Positions 6,040 to 34,500 of a DNA stretch of 64,000 nucleotides are shown in pieces. The stretch lies in NCBI GenBank assembly GCA_051294375.1, contig CM119266.1, positions 22,603,575 through 22,667,574 of the forward strand, read 5' to 3'. The notes beneath the pieces were generated by a model that worked only from the letters and a program-made list of their open reading frames with translations, did no database searches and was not told the origin of the DNA. The DNA comes from Paraspadella gotoi (taxonomy: Eukaryota; Animalia; Chaetognatha). The position numbers and the translations under genes were made by a program. Position 1 is the first letter of the stretch. Each line of letters starts with the position of its first letter.

Positions 6040-6227
6040 TTAGAACAATAAAAATCAAGAGTGGATGTTCGTTTTACCAATTGTTTTTTATACTAATTTC
6101 TGAAACGATTTCTGATTGAAATAAAAAACAAATTGTCTTGGAAAATTTTACTTGTTTCTAGTATATCAGTGCTTTTTTCTTATGTTTAATTCTGAAAATA
6201 CTTGAGAAGGAGACCTACCTACCTACT

Positions 6228-6459
6228 ATGGTGGACTAAAATCCACCAAACGTTCATCAGCGGCCCTTGGTGCCGGAGGCAAGTCATTCGCCTCCCAACC
6301 CAAAAGGTCCGGGGTTCTAGCCCGGTGCTCGTCTGGCAGTTAAGAGGGACGGGGCGCTTAACCCGCCTGTAACGTGGTGTTACAGCCTGATCCGAAGCTC
6401 AGGGACTGCTTATATTGAACGGTTCGGTCATTAATACTTATCAATAATTACTGTCTCTT
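6228..6459 (+). mobile_element. tRNA(Gly-like)-headed SINE-like element, subfamily A, carrying a twister ribozyme
   Basis: 5' hairpin ggtggactaaaatccacc. tRNA-like head ~6260-6332 with A box tggtgccggagg and B box ggttctagccc. Near-identical copy at 13362-13593; degraded copies at 33165-33380, 40272-40432(-) and 18747-18807. Confidence 0.85.
6336..6409 (+). ncRNA. Type P5 (circularly permuted) twister ribozyme; predicted cleavage U6359/A6360
   Basis: P5 gcagtt/gactgc; GA+CGG pairs with the L4 loop T-CCG-AAGC; TAA-CCC-GC-C; P3 tgtaac/gttaca; P4 cctga/tcagg. Matches the twister core UAA..GCC..U-CCC-AAGC..GA-GGG by eye. Confidence 0.85.
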
Positions 6460-6576
6460 TACTACCTACTTTTATTTTTATCACTTTGATTGAGAGTAAT
6501 TCAAAAGCATTAAAAAGGTTTTGGTTTAGTTGAATATCACACATGATTCTCAAAAAGACTAAAAATATGTCTCTTG

Positions 6577-9462
6577 CTACAATGCAGATTGGCGCTGGGA
6601 ATCCACGGACAGGGCCTTCAACGCAGGCTTCTTTGATTTTCGGGTTTGATCCCTTTCGTCTTCGCCTATATTCGGATCGAAGTAATACCTGGCCTCGTCG
6701 AAAGTTCCGCTTCGCTTATCTTGGTTCTACCGGGCGTTGGCGGGAAATAAATGGATGGGTGAGAAAGTGGCGTGGAAGGGGAGCGGAGGATAAAATGGAT
6801 GACCGAACTTTCCAACAATGCAGACAGAAAACTCGATTAAAATTGGCGCGCGCTTACCAACTGAAAATGCTTGGTTGTGGACCAGATTTGAATATTTTTT
6901 TTACAGTTGTCGACCCAGACTTTAGCCTCGGGGAAAACGGTGACCAGATGATTGACAACGGGGATTGGAACGTACGTCAGGAACTTGACCTTGGGGCAGC
7001 GATTCGATTGGATGAGATGAGATATGTAGGTCTAATAACATCTTCAGACTAAACTCTTTCATTTTTCAACCGACCGCCCATTCTCTTGTGACCTGACGAA
7101 ATTACGACGCTTAAGATACTTAAGTACCTGAATGGAAGGTTGCTCATTCGCCTTATTTCTATCCATTATCGGTTCGGGCGTGATGTCTTTCGCTCTCTCC
7201 AAATCTCCCTGTTCCCAAAATTCCCCCAAAAGCTGTTCTACCAAATAGCGTTGTTGAGGAAACGGCATGAAACTTCCGTGGAGGTCCGTCGACTGAAGAA
7301 GTGAAGAATGTTTATTTTAAGAAATTTTGCAAAGAGAGCTTGGTTAACAAACTTACTGTCATGATTATACTCATTAACAACTTGCGGTGTTCTGGATCGT
7401 TCCAGCAGAAATCCTCCTCCGGCATTTCTGAATACAGATCATTCAACTCTAAAAAAAGAATGATGAAAACAAGACGGACGGTGGAAGAAAAAGAATTAAC
7501 AAACAAAACCTTTACAAAGTAAGAAATAGAGAAATAAAGAGAGAGAGACACAATAACAATGAAAAGGCTAAAGACTAAATGACCTTAAAGTGGTCAGAAG
7601 AACCCAAAAAGGGTTGGCCCCTCACCCCTTCATAAGTCATTAAAGACACAGTTCCACGCGTCAGTTTTCACGTAGGCTCCCCAGTCTTCATTGAGACCCT
7701 TCCCAGGTCCACTACTGTGTCGTCGAATTTCAAGTGCTTCGCGAGTTTTAAGGTCATGGATCAGTTTTTTTGTTTTTTTTCCGGACATCGTTTTAATAAT
7801 ATTTGCGTTGACAAAATCCGGGGTTAGTTGACAATCTTTATAGTGTTTGGAGATTCTGGAGTGTTGCCATTGTTCTTTTTCAATTGCTTTTTCATGTTCT
7901 TTCTAGCGTGTCTGAAAACTGCGAGAGGTTTGACCAATATACACGGCTTTGTCCGAACATGGGCAGTTGTATTTATAGATTCCCTTTTTTTTTCTTGGGT
8001 CAGGGTGAGTACGGTTTTTGGTGCAAAGAATGTCCTTTAATTTTGTGCCTGATGTTCTTCTGACCACTTTAAGGTCATTTAGTCTTTAGCCTTTTCATTG
8101 TTATTGTGTCGCTCTCTCTTTATTTCTCTATTTCTTACTTTGTAAAAGTTTTCTTGTTAATTCTTTTTCTTCCACTGAAGATGACATAGAAACTTATGTC
8201 GAAATATATGGAAAATTTATAAATTTCTTTTTTTGCACTGCACTCAATTATGAAATTGAACTTTTTAATCATTATAGTAACTGTGCATGAGATGACGTTA
8301 AAAGAAAGACAGACGGTTTCTTATTTGAATGGTGAATGAAGCCACAGATGTGACAGAAAATTGTTTTTTCTATGTTTCGACTAAAAGACATCAGAAAGGA
8401 AAACTTGTATTTTTGTTGCTGAAATTACAGCTGAAATTCATCCAGTCATAAAAATCATGTTGTGATAAACGAAATTTTTTACCTCTGGAATGATTTATAC
8501 CCACAGGAAGGTCAGTACATATTATGCAATACTTTATGCATTCCACCAACAAGTTATAACCTTCCTTGGGCCAGTCAACCAAAAAATTTGTTTGTGGATG
8601 GGCTAACAAAATTAAAATAATTATTGACGCGGAATTTGAACATAAAAAAATCTTAAAAGTATATGGATTTCGACAGACCTTACTATGAAAGAAAATTAAT
8701 GAAAAAGTACTATTATCTAATTTGCATATTGTAGTAAATCATAATGACGTGGAAATTCAAGCAAAGAAAATGGACACACATTTCAACTTCCTTCACTGCT
8801 CACTAATGGAACTTGTAACTAGATACATTGTTTGATAGTTAAACCATAAACCGGCAAAAAAAGATAGAAATTGTTTTTTATTTTTCAATTTTTCAATTTC
8901 AATATGTAGTTTAGTTTTTACTTGTTTTCCAATCATCCAATCTTTGGTTTTTATTGAGCGTCCTACCTTGTTTTTATTAGAGACTCTTTTTATGTGAAAA
9001 AAAATTAAAAAAACTTTTACACTGTTACTGTTTATGATTATGTTAATACTGTTTTTGGCAGAGATGTGGAAGCGATCGATTTTCCACCGCTGCCAATCCG
9101 GCGCTCCCGAGACCCCTCCCGCTCCCGTTTTCGGGTGCAATCCTTACTTTTTTAAGCCCGGATCGCTTTCGGTTTCGAGTGCACATCGATTCCTTCCTTT
9201 AGAAATATTACATTTGTTATTATTTATAAAAATACTCTCTTTAGACATGTAATTCATTAGTAAAATAATTTCAAACAATCTTTTTTGTTAACAAATTGTA
9301 AGATTACTTATTTTACTATATAAGACATTTGATTGTTGCGATATAATCCTTTTTTTTCATTGTGTTTGAGATTTAGAAAAAAGTTTTGAAATTTTTTCAA
9401 CAACGATTTTTATTTTTCATAGAAGATAGAGTTTGTGAAAATATTGGCAAATTATGTGTAAA

Positions 9463-9502
<40 letters not shown>

Positions 9503-10520
9503 AAGAGAGGGAAAAAAGTTTTTAATACAGAGTTAAGAAAAGGATAGTAGTCCGAAGGTAAGGACAGATAGAGTAAGTTTTGAAAAGAAGTGAAAATGAT
9601 CAGAGAGAGAGAGAGAGAGAGAGAAAGACATTTGGTAAATAATACATTTCGTAATGTTCAACAAAGATAAAAATTACATTACAAAATGTATTATTTACCA
9701 ACTGTCTCTCTCACTCTCTCCCTCTCTCTCTGACCATTTTCTTTTTTTTTCAAAACCTACTCTATCTGTCCTTACCTTCAGCCTGTCCTCACTTCTAACC
9801 ACTATTCTTTTCTCAACTTTGTGTTGAAAACCATTTGCCCTCTCTCTCTCTCTCTCTTTCTTTCTTCTTTTGCAAACATAATTTGCAAATATTTTTTCAA
9901 ACTCTTAATGCTGATGAAGGCTGGAATTATAAGCGAAACATGTCTGTTTTTCTATGAAAAATAAAAATTGTTGTTGAAAACATATTTCAAACTTTTCTAT
10001 GTAATATAAATTTTTTGAAAACTATTGAATAGAGAAGGGAGAGAGAGCCTCTTTTTCTTTTTATCTCTCTCCCTCTGTTTATCTTTCTCTCTTTCGCTCT
10101 CTCTCTCTTGCTCCTTGTAGTATATAGTTATTTTTTGTTTATTAATTCTTGAAAAGAAAAAATATATACATTTATATAAAAAAAGAGATATAGACCGAAT
10201 ATAAAAATAAAAGAAAGTTTTTTTGAAAAATAATTCCTTAATTTTCTTTAGACTTTGGTTAACAATTAAAAATTATCTGAATGTCAAATTTGAATTAATA
10301 TTAAAAATAAATAGAAAAAACAGAATGAAGTATTTTATTCAGTTCTCTCTAACCCTGGCTCCTGATTCCTTTCTGTTTTTTCTAACAGATATATGAGAAA
10401 ACATTTCGAATCTACCCATAATATCATTGAATGATGCATCATATAAAATCTTATACATATTTTTTTCTATTTAATAAAAAAAAGAAAGATATGATATGAT
10501 AGGATTCAAATTCACCATTT

Positions 10521-10563
<43 letters not shown>

Positions 10564-13500
10564 TTCTCTCAAGTATGGATATGTATTTAAATTATGAATG
10601 TTCAATTTATTGATTTTTTTTAGCCGGATCTGTTTACAGCAGATCTCGGCTCTATAATTCACTTTGTCGGTCCGTCGGTCCATCGGTCCACCCCCACAAT
10701 CTTGTCGGTAAGTCACCTACATCATCTCAGAATATAGAATTATGATAAATTATGCAAAAAAATTGATGTCTCTCCGTCTGTCCCCCCTTAGCAAAAAACT
10801 ATAATTACTCATGATTGTATGGCGCGATTGACTTGAAATATTGTATGTGGGTAGGAAAGTGTGTGATTGTGCAGGAAATCAAGTTTCGATGGAATCATCC
10901 GAGTGGAAATAAGTTAAAATGGAAAAGACAAAAATATATTTCACTATTTGAACACCAATTACTCCTGAGTGGATGGGGCGATTGACTTGAAATTTTGTAT
11001 GTGGGTAGGAAACTGTGAGTTTGAGCTGGAAATCAAGTTTCGATGGAATCGTCCAAGTGGAAATGAGTTTAAATGGAAAAAAACAAAAAACCTGTTTCCC
11101 TATTTGCTTATGTTTTTTTTATTAAATGTAAATACAAGCTGCATTAATTATTCAATTAATAAATTAACTAATCACTAATCAATCAAAACTTAATGAATCA
11201 ATTTTTAAATCAATCAATTAATTAATTAATCAATCAACTAATTAATCAATTTATTTATCAATAAATTATTAAAAGAACTAATATAATTAATTAATTAATA
11301 AATTAATCAATCATTAAACAATGTCAGTGTTATCATTGTCGTCATCTCCAACGTTGTTGTTGGTTTTGTCCTGGTCAGTGACCTGACAAAAAGACCTAAA
11401 AACAAACAGGCCTGATATGAATTTCATTTAATTGATCAAACGATCATTCAATTAATCATGACGTTATTGTCGTCGTCGTCGTCATAATCATCATCATCAT
11501 GGTCGTCAATTCTTTTGTCATAATGAAAAGACGAAAAGACAAACAAGTTTGAGCTAACAATGCCAGAACTGATCAGTTAATTAATTATTCATTCAATTAA
11601 TCAAATATTCAATCAATCAATAAAAAAATCAAGCAATCAATCAATTTATCATCGTCGGTGTTATCATTGTCGTGATCGCTATCATTAATTATTTAATTAA
11701 TTAATTAATTGAAATTTTTTTATAATGTTTGCGAGAATTTGTAGAAAATTTTAGGCGTGTTTTTTGTGATAAAGAAAAAACGTGTATTATCAAAAAAGCA
11801 AAAAGCAAAAACGATAAAAATAATAACAACAACAACTAGTATTTACATTGGCTGAGAAAAAGGTTAGCCATAACAAGATCATTTATGTTCGGGTAAGAAC
11901 AGGTCATTCTTATTGACCACTACGGTACTACGGGTCACAAAGTACAAAGACTTCGTCGTCGTCTTCGAAATTGTTGTCGTCGTCGTCGTCGTCGTCGTCT
12001 TTGTTCAAATCATTTGAGATCCCAAATGTTCAATGTTATTCTTTTAATTATTCAATGTGTAATTCGTTAAATAATTTATTATTTTTTAACTAATTAATTA
12101 ATTAATTAGTTACCGCTAATGATTGTGGGCAGATCTGGCATTTTTTGCTCAAACTTGTTTATTAATCATTTTGATTTATTTATGAAATTGGTACAACCAA
12201 TATAAAAATTATCCATTCATTTAATAAATAAGCTATCTTGTCCTTGACTTTGGACTGGCTTATTTTATATATATTTTTTTTATTTGCTTTTTTGTTCACT
12301 GCGAGAGGGGGGAAAAGAAAGAAAATAGAGAGAGAGAGTGTGTGTGTTAGAGTATGTATAAGCACACTATTATGCAATATTGCCAATAAAACAGATCAAT
12401 CATTTTTGTTCAAACTTGTTTGTAATATGAAAAACCTTATAGATTTTTAAAAAAGTAGACTTTTAAATTTAAAGAAAAACAACAAAAATATAAGAAATAA
12501 AATTTTTAGTTTTATAAAACTAAAAAACTTTTATATATATATTAATTTAACTTATAATTACAGTTTTTTTTCAGACAGAAAATATATTTTTTTCAGCTCT
12601 GATTTTATTTCAATATATTAAAAAGAATAATTAAAAAAATAAATATGTAATTTTTTTCATAGATTTTCAACCAAAGAGGAAGAGAGAACGAAAGAAAACC
12701 AAAAAATAAAAGAAGAGAATAAGAAAAAGTGAATAAAAAAAATTAAGAGCAAACAATTCTAAATGTTGAAAATAAATGTTAAAAAAAATTCAAAAAAGAA
12801 AAATCAAAAAAGAGCAGGGGGTTGCAAAAATTGTAATACATTAAATGCCTTTCATTTCTAACCAATAAAAACAAATGATCATGAAGCGAACACGCAGGGT
12901 TATTATAGCTTCCTCAAAAATCGGCCGCTTCCACTGTGTTTGCTTACGCTTTCCGGATCGCGTCCACATCTCTGGTTTTTGGTATTAAAAATTTAAAAAA
13001 ATTAAAAATAGAATAGGACAGTGGTTCAACCTGGACTATGATGCGATGATAATTATTCACTTATGTGAAGGTAATCATTCATTAATGCGATGATAAGCAT
13101 TCATTGACGTGATGATAATCATTCATTGATGTGATGATAGTCATTCATTGATGCGATGATAACCATAGTAATTGATTGATTGATCGATGTAATTGTAATT
13201 GATTGATTGATGTAATAGTAATTGATTGATTTATGTAATAGTAATTGATTGATTGATGTAATAGTAATTGATTGATGTAATAGTAATTGATTGATGTAAT
13301 AATAATTTATTGATGCAATGATAACCAAACATTGATGCGATGATAACCAAATATTGATGCGATGGTGGACTAAAATCCACCAACCGCTCATCAGCGGCCA
13401 TTGGTGCCGGAGGCAAGTTATTCGCCTCCCAGCCCAAAGGTCCGGGGTTCCAGCCCGGTGGTCGCCTGGCAGTTAAGAGGGACGGGGCGCTTAACCCGCC

Positions 13501-16500
13501 TGTAACACGGTGTTACAGCCTGATCCGAATCTCAGGGACTGCTTATATTGAACGCTTCTGTCTCTAACACATAACAATAATCACTGTCTCTTCAATGCGA
13601 TGATAACCAAATGATTGATGGGATGATAATCAAATGATTGATGCGATGATAGTCATTCACTGATGTGATTAGTCATTCATCGTAAATAAAACAAACAAAC
13701 GCGTGTATGAGTGAGAGAGAGAGAGAGACAAAAACAGAGAATGTACGAACTTTGTTTCAAAAAATAAAACATATTCTGACTAAATCTCAGAGCCGTAAAA
13801 TAAATTCACGAAAATCTCGGATGTAAATTTGGGATTTTGTATTGAGAAAAAAGCGCGGAATAAATGGCGATAATAAAAGTTTTTAGAAGGAAAAAAATAA
13901 TCAGAATTTTTCGAAAAACGCACGATCACGCAAGAGATCGTACAGAGAGAGACAGAAAGAGACAGAGAATTGAATTTGAATTTGAAAAACAAAAGTGCGA
14001 GCTTTAGGCTTGTACTTTAAACAGAGAGAAAGACACAGAGAGAGAGACACACAGAGAGAGAGACAGAGAGAGACACAGAGAGAGAGAGACAGAGAGAGAC
14101 AGAGACAGAGAGAGAGAGACAGAGAGAAAGCTGGACAGCCGCTTCAGAGCTGAACTCGTTTTTAGACGAATCAGAATAGGGTCGAACTCCTTTCCTTTCT
14201 AAAAATAAATATTAAAAATCTTAAAAGCATAAGAATCGTCGCAATTGTATAAAAAAATTATGGACCCATGACAAACTTTGACACTTAAAAAATCAAATTT
14301 GATAAAGCAAAACTATGTTTTATATATAAATCAATTAAAAAAGAGAGAAAGAAAGAGAGAGAGAGAAAGAGAGAGAGAGAAAGAAAGAGAGAGAGAGAGA
14401 GAGAAGCCAAATCGTTTTCGGACGAATCAGCAGCGGCGGCAGCAGAGGCAGCTGAAAAAAAAAAGAAATCAAAACGCAGCAGCAGAAGAAGCAGGAGAAA
14501 AGAGAGAAAAAGAAAAAGCCCCTGCAGAGCCAGCTGCAGACTCGTTTTTTTTCCCTATGAATCAGCCTGGGGAAAAGAGAGAGAGAGAGCTACATAAAAG
14601 TAAAAGAGAAAAGAGAGAGAGAAGGAGACATAAAAATAAAAATAGAGGAAATTTGTTTGATATGATATCACACTTTCAATAGCCATGATTGCAAAAAAGC
14701 GTGACGCCGACGACGACGACGACACAAAGAAGCTAAAGCGAATTATTATAGAGACAGGACGGGCTTCACCCGGTCTGTCTCGATAAAAACATATTTCATC
14801 ACATTTATTCTGTACCGAGAATCTGAACAGCCATTCGAAAGTGATGAAATTCCATGGAGGATTCCGAATGCAAAAGCCCAATCGTGCTCACTTGTTCGAT
14901 CATAAATCTATTGGTCCTTCCTCTATGGTCAATGTCGTGGCAAATTCCCGCAATGAACAGACCCAACGATTCTAAGACTGTGAATTGATGCTGACAACTA
15001 TGTAGAATCGAAAATATTTTCTGGAAAAAGTTTTCATTTTACGGTAACAATGTTTAAAAAACAATAATAGAAAATACTTGTCACCCACCTGACAAACTTC
15101 GAAAGCGTGATGAAAATTATGATATGGTAATGTGCTTCTATAGTTTTTGTAAACCACGAGAAAAAATGTTTTCAACTTCTCAATGCTGTACGAGGTCAAA
15201 TTAAAAAGTCGTTCATACATTTGTACAGCATTGTGGACCTTCTCGAGGGCCGGCTCATGCCACCCAAAATATTCAAGCGTTTCAAGTTCTGGATTCCAAG
15301 GCTTTGTCTGAAAGACGAAAACATCATTCCGTTCAAATGACGTTCAATAAAAAAATTAAATAAATATTATTCATAATGTTTAACTTCGATTTTAGTTTTT
15401 CTACAAATGCATACGTACCATGATGGAAAAAAAAATTGTCGCGGTTTCTTTCCAGCCATTTTTCGGCATTTTAATGTAAGAATCAAAAAATAAAATTTAA
15501 ATATTGGCTTTTTGTAATTCATATTAGCTTTACACGGTAGGGCAGAGAGGATGTGAAAGAAACAAAAAAAGTGCCATCTCTGAAACCTATAAATTCTTAA
15601 AGTATACCCATGAGACACTTAATGTGGTAGGTCAGTAAAATTCGATAAAGGCAGGTTTTTTTTTAAATGCTCATTAAAGTTTTTTTATTTTTTTATAAAA
15701 ATTTTTAAGTAGTTTAGTGAATATACTTACAATTTAAATGTCTATATGTCTATCATTATCTACAAAGCATAAGCTTTAATTTGAAACCACTTCCAACTTT
15801 CTATTACTTTTTGCTATTGAAATATAGTAAAAATTAAATATTTTTTTTTTAAAGATTAATCAATTAGTACTATTGAACAGATTATTTCTTAAAAATAAAA
15901 ATATAAATATGTTCTTAAAATACAGTTCTACTTATTAGGCTTTCAAAATAAGTTTTTTTTAATTAATAATAATTTTAATATAAAAATTTTAAAAATGAAA
16001 AAAATATTTTGAAAAATATTAATATATACTCTAATTAAGTATTAAAAGTTAAAGCATTATGTTTGTTAATATTTTTACACATTTGTTCTATTAATAATAT
16101 ATATCAAATATTGAGTGAGTTATTATTATAATATATTTATGAATTAAAATTTTTTTTGATAAGTAATAAATTATATAATTACTTTTTTAAAGCTGGATAT
16201 GATTTTGAATTAAAGTGCTCAACTAATATTTATCTGTTATTTTATTTGAGATTAAGTTTTAATTAAATATCACATATTTTTCTTAAAAAAATAAATTAAT
16301 TAATTCGCAATTTGGCGATTTCGCACTGAACTACATCTAGCGTTCTAGTTATGGCGATTTCGCCTAAACTAAACTCAGATTAGGGTTAGGGTTAGGGTTG
16401 AGTTTGGTTTAGGGTTAGGGTTGAGTGGTAGTAGTAGGGTTAGGGTTGAGTAGTTTAGGGTTAGGGTAAGTAGTTTAGGGTTAGGGTTAGGGTTAGGGTT

Positions 16501-19500
16501 GAGTTAAGTTAAGTTTATTTTTGGCTTATTATTAATGTCAATTTTAGGGATAGGGGTAGGGAGGGTGTTGTTGATGACCAAGAGGCCCGCGTTAGGGTTT
16601 AGCTTAGGGAAGGTACTGGCGAGGGACATTAGGGATTAGGTTGAGGCACGGAGATGTACGGGAGGCCTGGGCCCGGTTTAGGGTTAGGGTTGGGAGAGAG
16701 GCCGTGGCTTATATATCAAAGGCGATTAGGTTAGGGTTGAGGTAGGAGATGTACGGGAGGCCGGGCCTGGGTTAGGGTTAGGGGAGAGGCATGGAGTTGA
16801 ACGGGAGGTTGGTTTAGGGTTTAGGGTTGGGACCCATGGTTGATGCATCAAAGGCGGTTAGGGTTAGGGTTGAGGTACGGAGATGTACGGGAGGCCGGGC
16901 CTGGGTTAGGGTTAGGGGAGAGCATGGAGTTGAACGGAGGGCTTGGTTTAGGGTTAGGGTTGGGGGAGGGACCCATGGTTGATGCATCGAAGGCGGTTAG
17001 GGTTAGGGTTGAGGCACGGAGATGTACGGGAGCCAGGCCTGGGTTAGGTTAGGGAAGAGGCATGGAGTTGAACGGGAGGCTTAGTTTAGGGTTAGGGTTG
17101 GGGGAGGGGCCGTGGTTTGATGCATCGAAGGCGGTTTAGGGTTAGGGTTGAGGCACGGAGTTGAACGGAAGGCTTTGGTTTAGGGTTAGGGTTGGGGAGG
17201 GGCCCGTGGTTGATGCAACAAAGGCGGTTAGGGTTAGGGTTGAGGCATGGAGATGTACGGGAGGCCCAGGCCGGGTTAGGGTTAGGGGAGAGGCACAGAG
17301 TTGAACAGGAGGTTTGGTTTAGGGTTAGGGTTGGAGAAGGAGCCTGTAGTGATGCTCATCCCCGTGTTAGCTGCGCTTTTCATTATATTCGCTACTTTTA
17401 TCACTGGCGAGGTCGCCAGTGGGGGGACTGGCGACATCGCCAAAGCCCTGGCGATATCGCCATGGCGAAGTCGACAACCAACTAGAACCTTCTTTTTTAT
17501 TTTTTTTATATTTACATTTTTTATTTATATTAATTTCCGGTTTTTTTTCTTATTTTTTTAGTTAAACCAATACTATTAAAAGTTCCTGCCTCAGTCTCAT
17601 GTCAAATGGTTATTGCATCATCTCTATTAAGATAGATTCAGGGATGAATCTTAATTCATATGTCAAAAAAAGCAAAATTATAAATATATTGATGCTGTAG
17701 ATGCTCCAGAATATTATTTTTAAAGTTTAAAGCATCAATAAAAGTTATAATGCTCCGGATAACCTTTCTGTAAGCAAAATTATTATTTTTATTTACCTTT
17801 TTATGTATTATCAGAATCAAATATCAAACATGACAAAAAAAAAATATAAAATTTTGTTAAGTGAAAGACAATGAATTATCACATTATGCAGCAACAACTG
17901 CCAAGTACTATTTTTTGCCCTAAATCTGATAAAAAATATTATGTCAGAGATATAATATTAATAATAATGTGAGTAATCCTCTTAATCAAAAGGAGGTGAA
18001 AACTGTTAGAGATAACCTCTTTTGGAAGTATTTGTATGCATTAAATAATTTTATGCTGTTAAAAAATAATCATTTTATTCAGGCCTATCAAAACCTATAT
18101 ATTATCCAAAAAATATTTTTGACAATAAATTAACTGACTTTTCCAAAACGCAACAATTTTTTTTCTATCATGGTAAAAATAAATAAACAATAAACAAAAA
18201 TCATTAAACTTACGTTTGAAATGATATTAAACTTTTCCCATTCTCTTTTATTTGGTTGAGTGTGCGAGGCGTGCATGTCCATAATAATCGTCCGCTTAAG
18301 CTCTGCTGAATTAAGACGGTCATACAAATCCCCATTATGCAATGCGAGTCCGCAGTAGCTGGCCAAATGTTTCATTGCAGCGACTTCTCGAGACGAAAAC
18401 AAGCAGTCCGAGGAGCTCACGACGGTGATCACTAAAGGGGTAAAAAATTGTTTGTTATAGAAAATATGTTATGTTATTACCTGCTCTACATCTCATATTA
18501 ATTATCTCAGTCTACTGTCCTTATTTATTCACCCCAGTTTAATAAATAAATAAGTATAATAATTGAATAAAAGACAGCCTTGTTTAATGTTAAGTGCCTG
18601 ACCCTCCTTTCTCTCACCACTGTAGAGCTCTCAGAAATATCATACATTTATGAAAGTTCCTGATACCTTCAAAGTTTTTTGTGCCAACTGTAGTGGAGAA
18701 AACGAATATCACAATAAAAAAATTTCTTGGATGCTCATAACATGGAGTTACAGCCTGCTTATATTGAACGGTTCTGTCACTAACTCAACAATAATTACTG
18801 TCTCTTCATATTGTGATATTCGTTTTCTCCACTAAATTTGGCACAAGAAATTTTGCAGGTATCAGGAACTTTCAAAAATGCATGGAATTTCTGGGAGCTC
18901 TACTCACCAGCGCACACGTTTTTTCCTGCTGGTTGATGGTGGATTAGAGTTGTGCTTGAGTGATCGGATGAATAAACTAAATAAATTAATAATTAATGAA
19001 ATATTAATTTTACCAATCATCTATCTTTTTTGTTTCATGTTCCTTAACTAACGATGAGATTCCTCATTTTTTTCCGTCATTTTCTCGCTTGTGAAGACGG
19101 GAACGCTGAGCAAGGACCTATAGGAACCAGTGGCTGCGCCAATACATGTAAATCACTTCCAAGGGCTTAAACTGAACTGTTACTGCGGCACTAATAATAT
19201 TTTGCTCCTTGCAAAAATATTTTATAAATCAAAATAATATTATTTTTGTTTCGATATATTATATAAGATTAAAATGCTTTGATAATACATAGAATAAGAA
19301 ATATAATAAAATAAAATAAAATATAAAAAATGTTTAATAAAAATATCAAAATAATATTTTAAAAAAATATAAAATAATAACAATTTTCAAAAAAATTACT
19401 ATTTTGTTGAAGATAAGGTCCAGATAAAGTTTATTTTGAATGTCCCTTTATCTTAAAAAAAGCTTCTTTCTTTGTAGGGCCCCCTAATAGAATAGGGACC

Positions 19501-22500
19501 CTATTAGGGTAAAAACATAAAAAAAAAAAATTTAATAGAAAAAAAAAAGATTTAAACCTCTGGTAGATATGTGGCGTTCGTCACAAATCGCCACGCGCAA
19601 CTGTGCCTCACTAATTAATATCAAGGATAAAAGCTGTTTCTAGAACAAAAACTTGTATTTGTTCAATATTAAAATCAGACCTTAATAAAATAATCAAACC
19701 ATATAGATATTCAGATAAACAGAAAATCTATATGCTCAAACAAACAAAAGCAATAGCAGTAATAACATCTGACACATAATTATTGAGACAAAAGATTGAA
19801 TGTGTTAAAGTTTATAACATTTTATTGTAAATATAAATACAAAATATATTTTTTTAATACTAATAACGTTAACTAAATACAGACGAACAAGTTGAACCAA
19901 AAAAAGTCACGATTTTATAGTGAAATGTGGCGTAGGGACCTCCCGCCAGCTTTCTCGTAGAAAACCCAACTTTATTTTCTATTCCTTTCATGATGGTGCG
20001 CGACTGTCTTGCCGTGAGTTTTCTTGGCCGCCCTGCGCATTTTTTGTGCTTGAGAGTATCTCCAGACTTTACTCTTTGTATTACGCGATAAATAGATGGA
20101 CAGCTAACATTTAGCTTCAAAAATACTGTAAAGTAAACGCTGCTCCTTCTTGTTCATGATTTTGGTAGAATTGGGCAATGACTTGACGGCGCGCTTCAGA
20201 GGAAATTTACTGCATCTTAAAAACGCGCGGGCCGATAAAAAAAAAATTCACAGTTTGGTAGACAAACGATCAAGGCTTCATTTAAAAAAAAAGATTTTTA
20301 CGGCGTTCTAGACGCCGACTACAGGTCCCGGAAGCCGTCTCAATAATTATGTGTCAGATGTTAATATTAATCAATAACATTAAAATAAAAATAAACCTTA
20401 ATACTGTGACAGTAAACATTTAACATGGTAGAAGAATTCCTTTGTGAAAGGAGAAGGAAATAAAAGTCATAACAATGTGAATGGTTATGATGTTCATTTG
20501 TCTTGACATGATTATACTATCATGTTAAAAATAGTTAATATAATTGGAATATTTAAAGTAAGGTATTGAGATGGTGAAAGTGATTAGTCCCGGGATCGAA
20601 TCCCGGAGATGACTCTTTTATTTGATTTTGATAAATCGTTTATAATGTAACATATGTTAAATAAAAGTTGAACTTATTTAAAATGTTAGTTGGCGATTCA
20701 CGATGCTTCTTCAGCTGTGAAGGCGAGAAGCCTAGATCAAATCCTACATCCCCCCCAGACGAGGAACCCGGAGGTGACGAGGATAAGGTTTCTTGATGGT
20801 TAGGCTCAATATCGTCGTTTTGCTGGAGGATGATGTGACTCAAGACCGCGCCATAATCTGGGCGTGTCGCGGCGTTGGCGCTGGGGCGACAGCAGGCATC
20901 TGATGGCTTTGACCTCGGGTATGGGAGAAGGCCGAAACAACGACCTTGTCATGGAGTTGGCGTCACGGAACGGGGCGTTGGCTGACGTAGTGGCCAGGAG
21001 GCGGGAGACGTTGGCGTCGCAGTGGGTGCGGCTGGAAATGGCTCATTTGGGTCGTCGTCGTTATTTTGTTAGTTTGTTTCTGCGCGTGTTTGAGTTGGCA
21101 GAGGAAGGCGACGACACCGACGCTTTCTCGACTCGACGCGACGAGGCGGTGGTGGTGGCAGCGGCGGCGCTCGCCGTCCAGCATCCTCTTCTGCCAAATC
21201 ATCGCTGACTTTAGCAGGTTTTACTAGAGATATAGCGATGGTCTCGATGTCACTGCCAAAGATGTCGACTTTGAAATTAAAATTGTCTCGTGACGTCACC
21301 CGGAAAGGGCCTTCGTAGGGAGCGGTGAGTGGCGGACTAATGCCGCCGCGCCGGATGAAAACATGACTGGACGTGGCGAGGCTGTCCGGGAGATGTACTT
21401 GAGGTACTCGATGGCTGCTGGTCGGTGCCGGTTGAAGTCGTTCTACTTCAAGTCGGAGCTCGTCTCTGAGGCATTGACGAGCTGCTCGTTCTTCCTCTTT
21501 GGATTGACTTGGGCCAATAACGTTTCCGGGCACTGCGAGGCCGTCTCCGTAGACTAATTGCGCTGGAGAGGCTTCAACAGCTGGCTTGATAGTGGTGTGG
21601 ATGGCTAGCAGCGCCAAAGGGAGCCGCCAATACCAATCATTCAGATTGTCTGATGAGCAACTTCTTCAGGCGGCAGTGGAAGCGTTCGACCAGTCTGCTT
21701 GCCTCCGGATGGTAAGCTGCTGTCAAACAAAGTTAGCATCCCCACGTCTGGGTGAGCTGCCTCCAGATCTTTGACGAAAACTGGGAACCGCAATCCGTCG
21801 TGATTTCTGAGGGGATGCCGAATGATGCAACCCAGTGATGTGCGAAATTGTCAGCGACGGTGGTTGCAGTGATGTCCTTTATCGGCACCGCCATCGGCTA
21901 TCTTGTGAACCTGTCGATGGCGGTGAGCAGGTAGAAAAAACTGTTTGACGAAGGCATTTTGACTAAGTCTACGTGGACATGCTGGAAGTGGCGCGAAGGG
22001 ACGACGAACTCGCTGATTTCTGAAATAATGTGGTGCGTCGCGTTGGCAAGCAACGCATTCACGCGCCCAACGCATCATGTCCACACGCAGCAATGGCCAA
22101 GCAAATTTCTCGGCTACGGCGTCTCGAGTTTGCGCGACACCCAAGTGGCCGAGCTCGTGGATTATCTCAAAAACTTAGCGACACCATGTCTCTGGAACGA
22201 AGGGTCTCGGTGGACCGTTTGAAAGATCGACCACAATGGTTTTGTTGCCAAGTTTGATTTGACGAAAATGTAGTCCGGTGGCTGAGTCCTAAGAAAAAAC
22301 TGTTTGACGAAGGCATTTTGACTAAGTCTACGTGGACATGCTGGAAGCGGCGCGAAGGGACGACGAACTTGCTGATTTCTGAAATAATGTGGTGCGTCAC
22401 CTTGGCGCGTTGGCAAGCGACGCATTCACGCCATGTCTCTGGAACGAAGGGTCTCGGTGGACCGTTTGAAAGATCAACCACAATGGTTTTGTTGCCAAGT

Positions 22501-25500
22501 TTGATTTGACGAAAATGTAGTCCGGTGGCTGAGTCCTAGAGAAGTCGACGAAGGTCTCGATCTAAAGACTGTTGTCATGCCAATTCGCGAAGGTCGATGC
22601 CTTGGTGTTGCACAGCAGCTACGACGAGGGCTTTTTGGCGCTTGGAGGCTTACTTGAAATGTTGTAACCTTGGTTCGGGCATGAGAGGGCATCAGCCACG
22701 ACGTTGGCCTTCCCCTCGATGTGGCGAATGTCCGTCGTATATTCCGCGATTGCAGAAAGCTGGAACATGTCTTCTTGTGAAGCGCATGAATTAAACTCAT
22801 GTTATCGTCCGGAATTGGCTGCCATTCGATTTGATTCAATAGCCTTTACCGTCCGTTGCACACAAGGTCCCGAACTTCGGATCGGGCTGTAGTCCGACAC
22901 TACAGGTGGGTTAGACGCCCCGTCCCGCTTTTACTTGTGTGAATCAGCAGGGCGCGAACCCGAGTCCTTTGGGTTGGGAGGAGCTCGTGCTACCTCCGGC
23001 GCCATAGGTGCTGCTGATTCTCGGACGAGTAGTGGGGTATGAAATACTACCACTACATGATGGACCTAAAGGCTATTGAATCAAATCGAATGGCAGCCAA
23101 TTCCATTGGGCATCACTCAATTTGGCGGAAAAGAAAGCTAGCGGTTCCCAACCCTGCGGGCCTTGTTGCTCCAGGACCGCTCCTATGGCATGGTCAGATG
23201 CGTCGGTTGTCAATGAAAGAGCAGCGCCAGTTTTTGGATGTTGAAGGAGGACCGCATTCGTCAAGGGTTCCTTGACGGCGTCGATACCATGTTGGCATGC
23301 CGATGACCAATCGAGGCGGCGCGGTTTGCCTTTGAGGGCATCGTACAGTGGCATCGTGTGATGTGCCACTCTTGGAATGAATCCCCTATAGTAGTAGGGT
23401 AGCAGTCTTGTCAGACACCTCTCAGGCCTGAAGAACCAGAGTGATGTCTTGGCCCAGGGTTCCTGGGGTGGTATATTCATACCGCCTCACGTCCATCATT
23501 GTTCAGTCATCAATCTCAATGGCTCATGGGGGGAACACGCCATCCCAGGTGTGTTCCATTCCCAGTCCTAACAACTTTCCTCTGCTTTGGCAAGCGAGAC
23601 TGTCAGGACTGGAGGCGTCACTGAGGGTTGGAAGCCCCCTAAGTTAACAGTTAGATGTCCCTTCCCAATGGGCATCACAGGCGACCCGGCTGTTGCCATA
23701 TTAGCTCCGTAACCTTGGATCTGACTGTTAGTCAGCCACTCATGTGCGTAAGACAGATTTTCCTTCCGTCGTCATACGGTTTGGGAGAGTGAATGTTTTT
23801 CTAAAGACTTAATTTGAATTCCTTAAATACTCTTACCTTATTTTCAAATCCGGCTTTAAGTTATCGATACTCTCGTTGTAATACTTTGAATTCTCAACGT
23901 CACAAACATTGTATGTTTTTCCTTAAAAAAAAGGAATGACAAAAATTGGTTGGTTTTAACAGCGGCAGAGATCAACCGTACGAGGCGCTTGGCATCGCAC
24001 TTGTTAACGTTAAGAGATTCAGAACCTTATATGTTCCCTCCTATCACAGCTGCGGTAAAATTCATCGCATCAGGCGGGTTTGAGCCCAGAATGCGAGGGT
24101 TGTATTCTACAATCAGATTTAAGTCTCTACAATAGGCTACTCAAATTAATCATTATAATGAATATGTTTGGTCATGATTTGGTTTACTCTGTACTCTGCA
24201 GTAATATAAAAAACAATTCCTTTGAACACCCAGCACCGTTAAAACTTTTATCATCTTAAATCTTGAAATGTAACTAAACTTACTCTCGAGCTGTGATTTG
24301 ATTGACATAGTTTTATTACGTTAACTTTATAAGAATATCTGCTGACCAGTAAACGCTGCTCTTCCCGAGATTCCTGTTTCTAATGGCCATATTCGACTTG
24401 TATCATCATCTTCGACTTCAAAGGCCATTCTATTAAAAAAATGTTTAAATTAAAAGAAATCTTTAGCCAAAGCTACTGATAAAAGAGGGTGTGACCATTG
24501 ACCAATTCCTGCTGTGTGTGTGGCCAGGGGTGGCGAAAGAAATGGCGGGCCCCTCCACTGGCCCCCTGTGCTCTAGAGTGGAGCACTCAAGAAAAAAAAT
24601 TATTTGAGTGAATAAACAAGGATATTTAAACGTGAGAAAGTATGATTAACTAGTACAAAAATATTTTGTTCATGGTCTTGAGAACAGAATAGTAAAATAG
24701 AATATATTTGTATTCAATCTTTTTTTTTGTAAGTTTAAGGAGTATAACGAAAAATCTGTCTGAACAACAATTTATTATTTTTTATTCTCTGTAGTAAAAA
24801 CCTATATATGTTAAAATGTTTTAATCGTTTTTTGTGGTCTAAACATTAAAATTGCATATAACATATTCTATAAAAAATATTAATTTTTTTATGGCGAATC
24901 AAACTCTGTTCTCAAAAATAAAAATAAAAAATATTTTAAAATTTTATGATTTTATAAGGATATTACTACAAGAATAATTCAATTCACTATACTGTTATGC
25001 TTAAAAAATTTTTTAAAGGATTTAAAATTCATGGGCAGAAAAAAAATAATGTTCTATCGCTCAATCTTTTCATCACTCCACCCTAATGTGCGCCCTCCCA
25101 GTCTCCATAATTTTAGTTTTGTTTTTGATTACCAACTTTCTACCTTGAAAATTGCTACAGTGCTCTGGTGTTTTACTGAAACTTTTTTTTTATCACAATC
25201 ATTGTGCCTCTCTTCTAATCTGAGCAAAGGGTCTAAATTTAATAAACCTTCTGACAATGAGATTTAGCACTTATTTTTTACAATGAGATGAAATAAAGAT
25301 AGGGTTATATATCACAATCATAATCATTTTGCTGTGACGGTATATTCATACTGCCTCACACCCAGCATTGTTCAGCCAATCCCATTGGCTCAGAGGGGGA
25401 ACGCACCATCCCAGGTATGCCCTCACAACTCGCGCTCTCTCTCCCACTATGGTAACAGTCTTGTCAGACACCTCTTAGGCCTAGAGAACCTGAGTGATGT

Positions 25501-28500: not shown

Positions 28501-31500
28501 TAAATTTTTTATAAAAAAACGTGTCGATTGGGACAAAAAATGTTCAGACACTTCCCATGACTTTGAAAGAATGCGGTTTTTTTTAAATATTGAACATTAG
28601 TAAGTTTCTCATCTGATGAAACTATATAATTAGCTAAAAAACAAGTTTTAGTTTTAAAAAACGCACCTCACAAAACCTCACAAATTAAAAGTTGGCTTAA
28701 AAATATTTTTGCAGCCAAAGTACTAAATTTTTTGCACTAATTTTTTAGGTGTTGAAAACTCAGTTGATAAGGAATAATTTCCTAGATTTGTAAGTAAATC
28801 AAAATATTTTTGTTTAACAAATTGTAAAAAAAACTAAAAATGTGAGTTTTTGACTAGTCAATTTTAAAATTAATTCAAAGGTAAACAATATATTTTTAAT
28901 TTAATATGAACTGACTCAGAAGTAAGGAAAATAAAAAGGACCTGAAAGCCAAAGTAAAATTTTTTTTTCCAATAATCTTGGCGTTCAAATCTCAAGACAA
29001 AAGTCAAAATGGACAAAAATGGACATAATTTTTTTTATTAAAAGTAGGGAAAATGATATTGATTCTTGATTAGAAAATGCAGCAGATGATTTCAATTAAT
29101 CCGTAGGCCAGCCCACTTTGTCTTAGGGTTCAAATTTAATCCATTTTGTAGGAAATATTCTAGCAATATTGCAAAAAGTGGTTTTTTTGCTGAATTCCTC
29201 GATAGAAATCACTGCCCTTGATGATCTCAAGTTTCCCTGTTTCGCAATCGAGAGTCGCGTCGATGATTTATTTGAAGAAGAGGGGGAAAAAAGGGGTTAA
29301 TTTCTCAATCGTCGTCAACAAAAAAGTCAGCCAAATAGCTACGAGTTGGGGTATAGGGTTGATGTAATGAAGTTTAAAAAAAAATAGAAAGTAAAAAGTT
29401 AAAAACAAGAATGAAAGAGAGGTTTTTTCTTCATCAATGTCAATAAATCATAATTTGATAGGCTCTTCATTTACCTTATCATTTCGATGGAAGTCAAAAG
29501 TAGTTTTATTGAAAATTTTATTTGGAGGTAGGTCCGTCTCACTAAAGGGCTCTACAAAAATTGAAAAAAATATTTACTTCATTAACAAAAGCATAATGAA
29601 TTTGTCAGATTTCGATTTATAATATTATTTAAAGTAGTAATACCACTAAAACAAGAATTGCTTATTCTATCTCTGTATACGGGTTCGGACTTAAAACTTA
29701 CCCCCCGTAGGAAATATTACTATTTCCTTAGATAATTTGTATTTTAAAATTTAGTTTGATCAATTATTTGATTAGTCATTTTACTTCATGTCAGCTCTTT
29801 ATTTATGAAGTATACAGATCTGCTCAAAAAAAAGTTTAATAGTAGTGATAAAAGCATTTAATTTCGTTAATTGAAGGAAAATTACATTTTTTATGACTCA
29901 GTTAATTAGTACTTGGTCGGACCACTATTTGCTCACAGGGCTGAAAGGGAAAACAATAATATAAATAGACATGAATCAAATAGACAATGTTTAATAATAA
30001 CATGCATCGGCAAGTTCAGAGTCTTTGAGATTGTCCATGATATTGTCTCCAACACTGCTTCCATGCGACGAGGGAGAGAGTCATAGAGGCTGCGCAAATA
30101 TGAAGGGTTCAGCTCCCGCCAAATGAGTTTTACAATTTTTTTTATTTCATCGACTATCGTAGCGTTGTACTGCAAAATATCCCTTTTCATCCTTCCCCAG
30201 ACGTTTTTAATGATGTCACAGTCAGGCGAGTTTCTGGGCCAACCTTTGAGCACCTTAATCCCATCTTTCTAATGCCATTTTTCGGTGGTTTTGGCTTTGT
30301 GTCCAGGAGCTCCATCCTTCATAAAAAGACGCCTATTCCCTGTTTGAGGACTGACCACAATTCTTCTTTCTTTCCATTTTTTTTTTCAACTGGTTTGCAG
30401 AAGCCTTACGGTCTTGTATTGCAAAACTTTTGAGGTACTTGTCCTCACTCTCCGTGGTCATGCGAGACCGCTTACTTCCAACAGCTCATCCAAGGTCTCT
30501 AGTTGCTTCAAATTTCTTGACAACTCTGCAGATGGTGGTTGGAAAGAAATTCAATTGTTTGGCGATCCTACATTTTGATAAACCCGCCTTCCAAAGTTGA
30601 ATAATTGCAGCTTTCTTCTTGGGGTTAGCTGTTTTGAAGTTTCCATGGTAAAAAACACAAAAAATTACAAAAAACAAAGATGGATAAAAAGTTTTTTTAC
30701 TCAGAAAAAGTAAAATGTAAGACAAAATTTTGATCCTTTTTTTATTTTAGCACAGCTTCTATAATATTTAGCCAAAAAACCTCGACTGGGCTCAAATGAA
30801 AGATCTTTATCTTGGCTTAAAAATGAACCCAAGTTCTAATTAATAGGACGACAGATAATTGAGATAGTAGGGGGTCCAAAGTTTAAACTTTTTTTTGAGC
30901 AGATCTGTACCTTCCTTAGGTCCTTAGTCTTTTGGTACAGTTGAGCATCATATTTATTTCGCCCTATACTGCATTAATTTAGAGCTCCCAGAAATACCAT
31001 GCATTTTTGAAGGTTTCTGATACCTGAAAAGTTTCTTGTGCCAAATTAAGTGGAGAAAACGAATACCACAATAAAAAAATTTCCCTGAATGCTCTTGATG
31101 GATTTTCAACGCCAGTTTTTGCGTCGTACCCCTTCCGGTTTCAAAGGAGGATGTTGAAGGAGGACCGCATTCGTCAAGGCTTACTTGACGGCATTGAAAC
31201 CATGTTGGCATGCCGATGACCAATCGAGGCGGCGCGGTTTGCCTTTGAGGGCATTGTACAGTGGCATCGTGTGATGTGCCACTCTTGGAATGAATCTCCT
31301 ATAGTAGTAGGGTAGCAATCTTGTCAGACACCTCTCAGGCCTGAAGAACCAGAGTGATGTCTTGGCCCAGGGTTCCTGCGATGGTATATTCATACTGCCT
31401 CACGTCCATCATTGTTCAGTCATCAATCTCATTGGCTCATAGCTCAACACGCCATCCCAGGTGTGTTCCATTCCCAGTCCTAACAACTTTCCTCTGCATT

Positions 31501-34500
31501 GGCCAAAGCGAGACTGTCCTAGGGACTGGAGGCGTCACTGAGGGTTGGAAGCCCCCAATGCTAACAGTGAGATTTCCTTTCCCAATGGGCATCACAGGCG
31601 ACCCGGCTGTTGCCATACTTAAATTAATCAAAATAAAGTTATTAGTAACCTTATTACTAAATTTTTTGTTGTGGTTTATAAATAAGTTTAAAAAATTATT
31701 ATTACGAAAGATTTATAATTAGAAATTATTATTTTTTTTAAGCCAAATCGTCCCTGACCAAATTACTCTACAAATTCTAATAATATTTTATAAGAAAGTA
31801 TGATTTGGTTATACAAATAGAACTCTCTAAGGGATTTTTAATATTTAATCCTTAGGCCAAGATATTGGCCTTTAAAGGTTTGCCAAATGATGCAAAAAGA
31901 AAGTAGCAAATTAGATAGAAGGCGCCTTGGCCTTTGTGGCAAGCCTCCCACTCAACCTTAACCCTAAACCTCTCCCCCAACCTAAACCTTAGCCCAGGCC
32001 TTTTATTCATTTGCAAGCCTCAACCCTAATCTTAATGTCCCTAGTACAAGCCTTTTTAAGCGAGCTAACAGCAAAATTATCATTTGGCGAGGTTGCCATG
32101 ATTAAGTATTGCGATTTTTCAATTTGGACGGGCTCAGAAAAGGGCAGGAAGCTTGGGTTAGCGTTAAGGAATGTCCTGGGGAAGGAAATTAAGGATTAAA
32201 GATTGGCCTTATTGATGGCAAGGAAGCAGGGATGCCTTAGTTGAGGCTGAGGTGAGGATTGGTGGAGAGGCTCTGGAGTGATGCAGGGTTAGGGATCTGG
32301 CATGAGGCCTAGGTTAGGGTTAGGGCTAAGGAAGTTGCTCTCTGCAGATGTCACCAGCCAGGGAAACAGGTTAGGGTTTGGATTAAGGACCGGTTTGGGG
32401 TTAAGTTTTAGCAGGAAGTACACTAGCTTGGGTTAAGGTTAGAAGAGAGGCTGCTCGGGTTAAGATACAGACTTGGGGTGAGACAATAAGCTCACGTCAG
32501 GGTTAGAGCTTGGGTTAGGTTAGATATCCCAAGCAAGGGAAACTGATTAAGATTAAGGTTTTGTTTAGAGCCCAGTTTAGGGTTAGGGTTGAGTGAGAGG
32601 CTTGCTAGCTGCAAAGGCTAAGTCGCCTTCCATCTAATTCGGTACTTTCTTTTTGCATTACCTGGTAAACTTTTTAAAGGCCAATATCTTGGTTTAAGAT
32701 TAAAGATTTAAAATCCTTTAGACAGTTCTATTTGTTTAACCAGATAGTAAAATTTAATTAAAATTAGTAGAGTAGTTTGGTCAGGGCCGTTTTGAATTAA
32801 AAAAATTATGAATTTTTAACTTGAAGCCTTTTGTAATAATATTTTTATAACCTTATTTATAAACAAAAAAAAATGTTGGTAACTTTATTTTGATTAATTT
32901 AAGTATGCTGGCATATTTGTTTCCAAAAATCCCGAATTTTTAAAACCGGAAGTGGTTCGACACAAAAATTTGCGTGGAAAATCCATAATGGGAATCCATG
33001 AAAATTTTTTATTGTGATATTTGTTTTCTCCACTAAATTTGGCACAAGAAACTTTGCAGGTATCAGGAACTTTCATAAATGTATATTTCTGGGAGCTCTA
33101 TGCATTATCCATAATCTTAGTATATATGTTAAATGATAAATTAAGTTTCAGTATATAATAATTTATGGTGGACTACAATCTATTACCCATTTATCAGTGG
33201 CCATTGCTGCAGGAGGCAAGTCATTCGTTTCTTCAACCCAAAGGTCCGGGGTTCTAGCCCGGTGGTCGCTTAGCAGGCGTTTAACCCTCTGTAATACGGT
33301 GTTACAGCCTGATCCGAAGCACAGGAATTATTTATATTGAACGGTTCTGTCAGTAATTCATAATAATTATTATTATTTCTTTAAATTTAAAATTTCAGAA
33401 ATTAATATTTTAATATTCTTTATTGTTTTATTATTATTTATAACAAAATTTTAAAAAAATATCATATTTAAAAAAAAACGATAGTTTTTTATGATTTATG
33501 AGATTTACTCTCTCACCAACTCTTATATTATCTCTCTATAAATCGTTGTTTCTGTTTTTAAAAACTTTTTTTTTAAACCAAAAATATAACTAAGAGTGAC
33601 CTAATAAAATGTTTAATAATATTTTTTTTTAATTTTGTAAAGAATTAAAAAGAATAGACCAGAAATCTTTCGCCCGTGTATCTTATCAGCATTTTTAATC
33701 TCAGTGTTGCATTTAAGTCTTTTCGGAGGCGTGGGTTCGAATCCGACAACTGCCACCACATTTAAATAAGTAGACAGAAATTTCAACATGAAACCAAAAA
33801 TGTATTTTATTCTTGAGAAATATAATATGCGAAGACCGTGTCAGAATTTGAGCAGATGGATTCAATACAAAATAGTCTGGAATTTATACAATACAATCGG
33901 ATCATTGACACGGGCTCGTTTCCCGATGGCATGAAGCCTCTCTTCTCATTGGTCCGTTTCGATGATGATTCATCCAATCACAGAGTCCTAGGTAAATTTT
34001 ATCCGAGTCGCCGATCCGATTCCATTTTTGGTTCCGATTCCATCTGCGATGGTTGTTACGGTCTTAATTTTTCTTTTCCAAAAAGAAACGAACTATATTT
34101 TTTCATCTTCTTTCTCTTCGTTTTCCCATAAACCTCCCGAGCGTATTAAAATCCAGGATCGCCACTTAATGTTAAAGTAAGACTGTCAAGAATTAATTAC
34201 CTGTAATGCAACCATCCGTGCAAGTCTCGTAACCTGAAGTTAAACATTAACATATTTGAAAAATAGAACTAATTTTATTCCGTTTTTTAACTGTCAAAAA
34301 TTTATTAAGAATGTCATTTTGTACAAAAATTATGCTATTAAGAAGATTTTTTTAAATTATGGGCTTTAATAATTTTTAAAATAGTATCGTAATATTCTGG
34401 TGGTCCTATCACCACAGATGGATTAAAGCTGTTTCTTTCACAGCGCCTCAGTGGCTCAGTGGCCTAATGCACCATCCCAATGTGCGTCCCTGGTTCGAGC

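Follow-up and report, generated by a model that had tools for sequence, protein, structure and literature searches.

A predicted type-P5 twister with a near-palindromic six-nucleotide P1 in tRNA-bearing long terminal repeats of Paraspadella gotoi

A twister-type fold within tRNA-bearing LTRs

The window analyzed here is a 64,000-nucleotide stretch of the chaetognath Paraspadella gotoi (assembly GCA_051294375.1, contig CM119266.1, positions 22,603,575 to 22,667,574 of the forward strand). It contains copies of a very abundant repeat of 235 to 267 bp, which we interpret as a long terminal repeat (LTR), mostly solo, and which carries a tRNA-like region followed by a predicted twister ribozyme. 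The reference copy, a family A solo LTR of 235 bp (6227-6461, + strand), starts with T-A and ends with C/T-A. In four runs, loose ends accumulate at 6227 and 6459 and the depth jumps about 10^4-fold (summed contig depth of about 10^6 over 6227-6459 versus about 10^2 in the flanks, a value that is not a copy number). A 4-bp duplication, CTAC, lies on either side at 6223-6226 and 6462-6465. Family C shows similar depth and end behavior over 34396-34662. Target duplications of 4 bp flank all five copies for which both ends could be placed; the family B and D copies and a fragment at 18738 are not scorable.

Sequences flanking family C point to the same kind of element. For runs X1 and X3, the loose ends pooled beyond its right end agree in 17 of 18 letters with the tRNA-Trp primer site of Gypsy-32_NVi (7 and 9 contigs, with agreement of 0.62 and 0.59), and X2 and X5 give a weaker match; the identity of this primer site is taken from Fig. 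S2 of PMC10886601 (here and below, papers cited by PMC number are represented by their accessible parts). In X1 and X2, two runs of one sample, family C has a G-rich tract before its left end. Because of the 4-bp duplications and the family C primer site and purine tract, we consider the carriers to be LTRs, mostly solo; for families A, B, and D, the shared layout, and in family A the duplications as well, suggests this assignment. No primer site was found within the window. End-to-start joints of family A are few, at 6 and 3 contigs and in only two of the four runs. A tRNA-derived short interspersed nuclear element was considered and rejected: the repeat starts about 35 nucleotides before the tRNA-like part, ends sharply, and is flanked by 4-bp duplications.

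The LTR opens with a 5' hairpin (6229-6248, +), which sequence and folds place at the equivalent position in families B and C. A tRNA-like region follows (6260-6334, +), with an A-box-like motif at 6268-6279 and a B-box-like motif at 6313-6323; the motif scan found both boxes in families A, B, and C. Folding of this region is strong in C (z = -4.2) and unremarkable in A, and ARAGORN called no tRNA gene in the window. Judged by its motifs, the region is likely an RNA polymerase III (Pol III) promoter. No T4 run is present on the sense strand of the five copies.

A type-P5 twister fold can be read from the sequence at 6336-6409 on the plus strand. The outer stem, P5, pairs 6336-6341 with 6404-6409. 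P2 joins CCC (6362-6364) to positions 6344, 6346, and 6347 of the partner strand 6344-6347, which is followed by a GA dinucleotide (6348-6349), the first strand of the T2 pseudoknot (6350-6352, pairing with 6392-6394), the P1 linker, and a UAA triplet (6359-6361), in which homology to the twister consensus predicts a cut between 6359 and 6360 (PMC8501958). The T1 pseudoknot pairs 6365-6366 with 6397-6398, P3 occupies 6367-6385, and P4 (6386-6390/6399-6403) encloses loop L4 (6391-6398).

We collected copies in the window by BLAST, hidden Markov model, and covariance model searches. Five bear the core and belong to four families (A to D) that are about 70% alike; the covariance model search returned no further family in the window. 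Apart from the reference copy, sequence and alignment placed a second family A solo LTR (13361-13594, +; P1 at 13486-13491), which is intronic, antisense to a phosphodiesterase gene, and has one T1 pair broken; a family B LTR piece (22848-23057, -; 3' end not placed), which lies within a gypsy remnant and has P1 GGCGTC at 22919-22914 and a compensatory T1; and a family D copy (40436-40690, -; approximate ends), which has P1 GACGTC at 40544-40539 and is decayed, with a UAC triplet and mismatches in P3, P4, and T2. The family C solo LTR (34396-34662, +; 267 bp), placed by sequence and read depth, has P1 ACCGGG at 34531-34536 and a compensatory T2. The ribozyme units of families A, B, and C, of 75 to 85 nucleotides, occupy 6336-6409 (+), 22858-22942 (-), and 34510-34592 (+). 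Three more family A copies carry deletions. The first (33164-33383, +) lacks the P2' strand, GA, and the T2 strand and is flanked by the 4-bp duplication AATT (end and duplication read by eye); the second (40271-40433, -) lacks most of the twister and is flanked by CATC; and the third (18738-18808, +) is a 3' fragment without the P1 part.

In the five-copy alignment, 92% of 115 cells are paired over 23 pairs, P5 excluded, and two-sided changes occur at 6 pairs across T1, T2, P1, P3, and P4. None of 500 shuffles reached this paired fraction, in a test on aligned sequences that are few and related. T1 is G-C in three copies and A-U in two; T2 is C-G in three, U-A in one, and unpaired in one; P4 pairs in 92% of cells, with one two-sided change. 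In P2, CCC faces G-N-G-G, whose N is bulged and varies; the three pairs are invariant in all five copies. The GA, UAA, and L4 core letters are intact in the reference copy, B, and C; D has UAC, and the second family A copy has a changed L4. Taken across families only about 70% alike, GA, the U and A of the triplet, T1, and T2 are retained with two-sided changes.

The fold shares with the type-P5 twister model RF02684 its strand order, GA-NGG, UAA, both pseudoknots, and P4 with L4. It differs at two places: in the RF02684 consensus, P1 is 8 bp long and capped by a tetraloop and P2 has four pairs, whereas the copies here have a six-nucleotide near-palindrome and a 3-bp bulged P2. Rfam gave no match at gathering score across the window and no twister at E values up to 10 on 6100-6600.

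In family C, an A>C change at 34539, within the cleavage triplet, makes up 14% and 10% of the depth in two runs of sample S1 and only 0.04% and 0% in samples S2 and S3. Such a variant, which may be unable to cut, has perhaps expanded recently in a single individual.

The six-nucleotide P1 linker

Between the T2 strand (GA-NGG) and UAA, all five core-keeping copies have a linker of exactly six nucleotides. It reads GGCGCT in the reference copy (6353-6358, +), where sequence, alignment, and duplex energies mark it as self-complementary; in RNA letters, the families have GGCGCU (A), GGCGUC (B), ACCGGG (C), and GACGUC (D). The pair between linker positions 2 and 5 holds in every copy through four pair types (G-C, G-C, G-U, C-G, and A-U). 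The pair between positions 1 and 6 holds in four of five (G-U, G-U, G-C, an A-G mismatch in family C, and G-C), and the central dinucleotide is CG throughout. Self-duplexes of the linker have predicted energies of -8.3, -6.3, -8.1, and -7.5 kcal/mol for the four families, within the top 1.1, 3.4, 1.3, and 2.1% of all 4096 hexamers. If the central CG is taken as given, a family would reach -6.3 kcal/mol by chance with a probability of 0.18 to 0.40, depending on the GC level assumed. The joint hexamer signal is moderate, at roughly 0.0002 to 0.01 for families that are related.

Reads covering the repeats allow the linker to be followed beyond the window. In family A, the sole P1 variant above 3% is C>T at 6355, at 0.2 to 5.4% of depth; it reflects decay of the central CpG after insertion, as seen at other CpGs. 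In family C, no alternative letter at 34531-34536 reaches 2% of depth in any of four runs, and the A-G mismatch therefore belongs to the family; these family-wide reads led us to reject the idea that the copy in the window had mutated from a perfect palindrome.

Within one molecule, forming a single linker pair costs 3.9 kcal/mol in family A and 2.2 kcal/mol in family B and is impossible in family C, and the folds revealed no intramolecular partner of the hexamer common to all families. The intramolecular P1 stem that characterizes the twister class is thus not found here, the linker being six nucleotides long and its closing pair unfavorable. A preliminary description of this DNA had anticipated much of this picture. 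It held that P1 is always six nucleotides long and self-complementary or nearly so, which applies to all five copies and four families, with the end mismatch in C; that P1 is too short for a stable hairpin, which holds in nearest-neighbor terms; and that P2 is shortened to CCC with a bulged partner, which is borne out by three kept pairs in five of five copies versus four in the type-P5 consensus. When checked across copies, the self-complementarity of P1 proved to be maintained through substitutions in four families.

Shared or separate P1 helices

Our preferred reading, to which we assign a probability of about 0.5, places a type-P5 twister fold in a tRNA-bearing LTR that belongs to a Helenus-like element of gypsy type, and has its P1 pair with that of another copy; the likeliest partner is the opposite LTR on the same RNA. 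In predicted energies, which leave out both pseudoknots, a strand-swapped dimer is more stable than two monomers in twister form, by 11.7 (A), 10.1 (B), and 10.3 kcal/mol (C). For family B, the two-strand optimum of the whole LTR falls in the exact palindromic register.

In the cycle that we propose, transcription by Pol III would begin at the tRNA-like part of a 5' LTR and, because no T4 run is met, would continue into the 3' LTR. One RNA would then carry two twisters, and each core would combine a 5' half from the ribozyme of one LTR with a 3' half from that of the other. Both cores would sit back to back on a shared P1 of 4 to 6 bp and would cut both LTRs. The two cuts would yield a unit RNA without terminal redundancy. 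It would have to be circularized before a CsRn1-like gypsy element could reverse-transcribe it from a tRNA-Trp primer, in line with the proposal made for plant retrozymes. Cleavage would go faster with pairing; lone copies, such as solo LTRs in host transcripts and the finished circle, would cut more slowly, probably not at zero, and this weaker cutting would protect both host transcripts and circle.

Several observations weigh against a shared P1 helix. The omission of both pseudoknots affects the energies given above. The whole-LTR two-strand optimum lies outside the palindromic register in four of five copies, and the core-only two-strand optima are other structures. A strand swap requires that the 6- to 8-bp P5 of the first LTR be reopened. 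By our own estimate, six nucleotides can probably span a helix end. In the family C linker, just the four base pairs of CCGG would form, the ends being an A-G mismatch. The comparison covers four related families only. Primer-site and purine-tract flanks were seen for family C and not among the loose ends listed for family A, and the window holds no two-LTR copy. Finally, the covariation at positions 1/6 and 2/5 fits a 2-bp stem with a CG dinucleotide loop equally well; because the central dinucleotide never varies, the palindrome and the 2-nucleotide loop are not separated.

This last point leads to the alternative that survives best, which we regard as possible if doubtful: each LTR twister may cut alone, with P1 forming a stem of 1 or 2 bp closed by a 4-nucleotide loop or a CG 2-nucleotide loop, or acting simply as a linker. 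On this reading the element would remain a working twister retrozyme, its palindrome arising incidentally from a tight hairpin that would produce the same covariation. Two-nucleotide RNA loops are rare. A single closing pair is unfavorable by 2.2 to 3.9 kcal/mol, and the self-complementary CG loop in all four families is left unexplained. Moreover, separate cutting would make thousands of solo copies live cutters, and the unit circle would recut itself. In its favor, and against a shared P1, the literature portrays P1 as dispensable or tolerant in type-P1 twisters: twisters without P1 cleave at an almost wild-type rate (PMC5408937), imperfections in P1 had no effect on cleavage in a large screen of type-P1 twisters only (PMC11662667), and P1 breathes in probing by selective 2'-hydroxyl acylation analyzed by primer extension (SHAPE) (PMC6101554). 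A type-P3 twister is functional with a shortened P1 closed by a GAAA loop (PMC5052635), and plant retrozymes are described with one hammerhead per LTR (PMC7761336, PMC4918200). On the other hand, cleavage without P1 is called inefficient in PMC8501958, and a type-P3 twister switched about 10-fold when aptamers were placed on its P1 (PMC5052635); a closed P1 can therefore matter.

We think it rather unlikely that the double twister is obligate, such that a cut is made only when strands are exchanged between the 5' and 3' LTRs of a single Pol III transcript over the 6-bp P1. Strict dimer dependence is less likely than a shared P1 because published type-P1 twisters cleave without P1. The preliminary description had proposed a dimer-dependent ribozyme; of this, the covarying self-complementarity and the favorable predicted swapped dimer stand, and a requirement for a dimer is the less likely part, twister P1 being reported as dispensable. 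It had also seen the ribozyme without an element context and had looked to tandem units for the partner. The carrier is a tRNA-bearing LTR of the Helenus type, and the partner would accordingly be the other LTR of one transcript rather than a unit of a satellite array.

An improbable alternative is that the hexamer is a dimer-initiation signal, a kissing palindrome by which genomic RNAs would come together in pairs to be packaged by the gypsy helper, with any effect on cutting being secondary. GC-rich palindromes of six nucleotides are the form of known retroviral dimer-initiation sites, the carrier is an LTR element, and in the monomer optima of families A and B most of the hexamer lies within an 8-nucleotide loop. 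Against this, the hexamer sits exactly at the P1 position, directly 5' of the cut, at a fixed length, and no autonomous helper is known to need such a palindrome in its LTR.

Least probable is an inactive relic that no longer cuts, in elements moving as ordinary miniature terminal-repeat retrotransposons (TRIMs) with normal terminal redundancy: the lack of Rfam recognition, the shortened P2, the pairing of T2 or the catalytic G strand with CCC in monomer optima, and the UAC triplets of family D and of the 10 to 14% variant seen in one family C sample and about absent from two others would suit it, and the core preserved with two-sided changes across families about 70% alike, together with the cutting of about 94% of tested type-P1 twisters despite imperfections, speaks against it.

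Known elements, wider searches, and significance

The repeat is laid out much like Helenus TRIMs/TRIMp3 (Kojima 2024, PMC10886601): both have a tRNA-like region with A and B boxes in a short LTR, along with duplications of 4 bp, a gypsy-type primer site and purine tract, and many solo LTRs; Trp priming is known in two wasp Helenus families (PMC10886601). The accessible parts of that paper contain no mention of a twister and propose standard LTR replication, whereas here a twister follows the tRNA-like part. Among 12 L4-like motif matches in the accessible supplement, none stands in a twister context by eye, a count from which line breaks may have hidden some. In the LTRs of Helenus-2_SyJa and Helenus-2_SyUm (DataS1 of PMC10886601), the core of a type III hammerhead can be discerned by eye, and its loops I and II are complementary. 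This gall-wasp hammerhead, in Trp-primed elements, directly follows the tRNA-like part and is unmentioned in the accessible parts of PMC10886601. Because it occupies the equivalent place, a ribozyme may matter at this position of the LTR.

Plant LTR retrozymes (Cervera 2016, PMC4918200; PMC7761336) likewise have a ribozyme in each LTR, 4-bp duplications, a primer site, a purine tract, and a gypsy helper, and in them cleavage at both sites takes away the R repeat and gives rise to circles. They differ in having type III hammerheads, a tRNA-Met primer, and demonstrated circles, where we have a predicted twister and a tRNA-Trp primer. The self-cleaving motif in the LTR by which a retrozyme is recognized is present here as a predicted fold; metazoan retrozymes are described as lacking LTRs (PMC7761336). 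Hammerheads of Penelope-like elements and amphibian satellites that have a short palindromic stem III cleave as dimers (PMC6765202, PMC7761336). The likeness to these minimal hammerheads is a helix beside the cut that has shrunk to a palindrome two units could share; the differences are that stem III is needed, whereas twister P1 is reported as dispensable, and that ribozyme class and host element are not the same. The Perere-3 T-variant twisters of Schistosoma mansoni (PMC8501958) also serve a retroelement. They are of type P1, lie at the extreme 5' end of a non-LTR element, and have P1 completed by flanking DNA; here the twister is of type P5 and lies mid-LTR, and the loose-end pile-ups indicate that copies do not begin at the predicted cut site.

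A remnant of a possible type of helper lies in the window itself. At 21069-23486 (-) is a broken Ty3/gypsy remnant with a ribonuclease H (RNase H) domain (RT_RNaseH_2, E value of 3.5e-19), an integrase tail with a GPY-like motif, and a purine tract near 20750; it has 57 gypsy Pol relatives, the best at 61% identity, and elements of its type could be what mobilizes these LTRs. Defining features of the CsRn1 gypsy lineage are a Trp primer site and duplications of 4 bp (PMC3630058), and the LTRs were likely moved by a CsRn1-like gypsy element. No gypsy relative was found among viral contigs. The family B piece (here 22810-23100, -) lies within the remnant's RNase H region and is flanked by 38-bp inverted repeats, of which one arm is gypsy coding sequence; it looks like an insertion with a local inversion. 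A second gypsy RNase H-like fragment lies at about 31200 (-).

Searches of metagenome, prokaryote, and viral collections yielded no convincing extra family. A pattern scan of metagenomes gave 120 loci, nearly all of them chance matches, of which 4 passed a filter for T1, T2, and P4. Ten had six-nucleotide linkers, two of them perfect palindromes (L017 and L099). L099 (44-122, -), on an AT-rich contig, has both pseudoknots paired and a perfect six-nucleotide palindrome with a GC center; as one of 120 pattern matches it may be chance, and we treat it as a weak lead. The covariance model search covered 100 of the 120 loci, and its E values are invalid because the set had been preselected by pattern; L042 scored above L099 though lacking these features. 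Prokaryote genomes gave 47 matches with linkers of 4 to 8 nucleotides, one of which passed the P2 and P4 filter and looks like chance. Viral scans gave 46, 90, and 9 matches (the Rfam check covered 20 of the first 46), in which the real twisters are type-P5 forms with a long P1 (L129 and L165) or tandem type-P1 forms (L130, L146, and L159). In L146 and L159, on phage contigs, and also in L130, two type-P1 twisters stand in direct tandem with a six-nucleotide linker between GAGGG and the next UAA. Such tandems could be a source of type-P5 forms with a six-nucleotide P1.

Elsewhere in the window, exons of a PDE10/PDE5-like cyclic-nucleotide phosphodiesterase extend over about 6840-18470 (-), recognized by motifs and an E value of about 9e-4; a homolog search with the exon gave no match. 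The preliminary description had suggested that dimer dependence would spare host pre-mRNA; three family A copies lie in or beside these exons, all antisense to the gene. An interstitial tandem array at 16629-17336 has units of 43 to 95 bp containing TTAGGG telomere-type repeats, and a Tc1/mariner-like transposase fragment, seen by eye and without a Pfam match, lies at 29933-30268 (-).

In the open-access literature, with subscription papers and Repbase lying outside the search, we found no report of a dimeric twister or of a twister-bearing LTR. If the pairing is real, the Paraspadella element would contain a natural dimeric twister, and hammerheads and twisters would have converged on one dimer trick. 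If, further, the double twister were obligate, the element would be an LTR-counting, circular-RNA retrozyme built on a twister, leaving thousands of solo LTRs and the circle uncut. A twister gated by two copies would also make a useful RNA switch. The element joins two published types, Helenus and the retrozymes. A ribozyme placed behind the Pol III promoter of an LTR would remove terminal redundancy, which would imply a circular intermediate in an animal, and the unreported hammerhead in wasp Helenus LTRs suggests that the LTR-ribozyme design may be more widely used.
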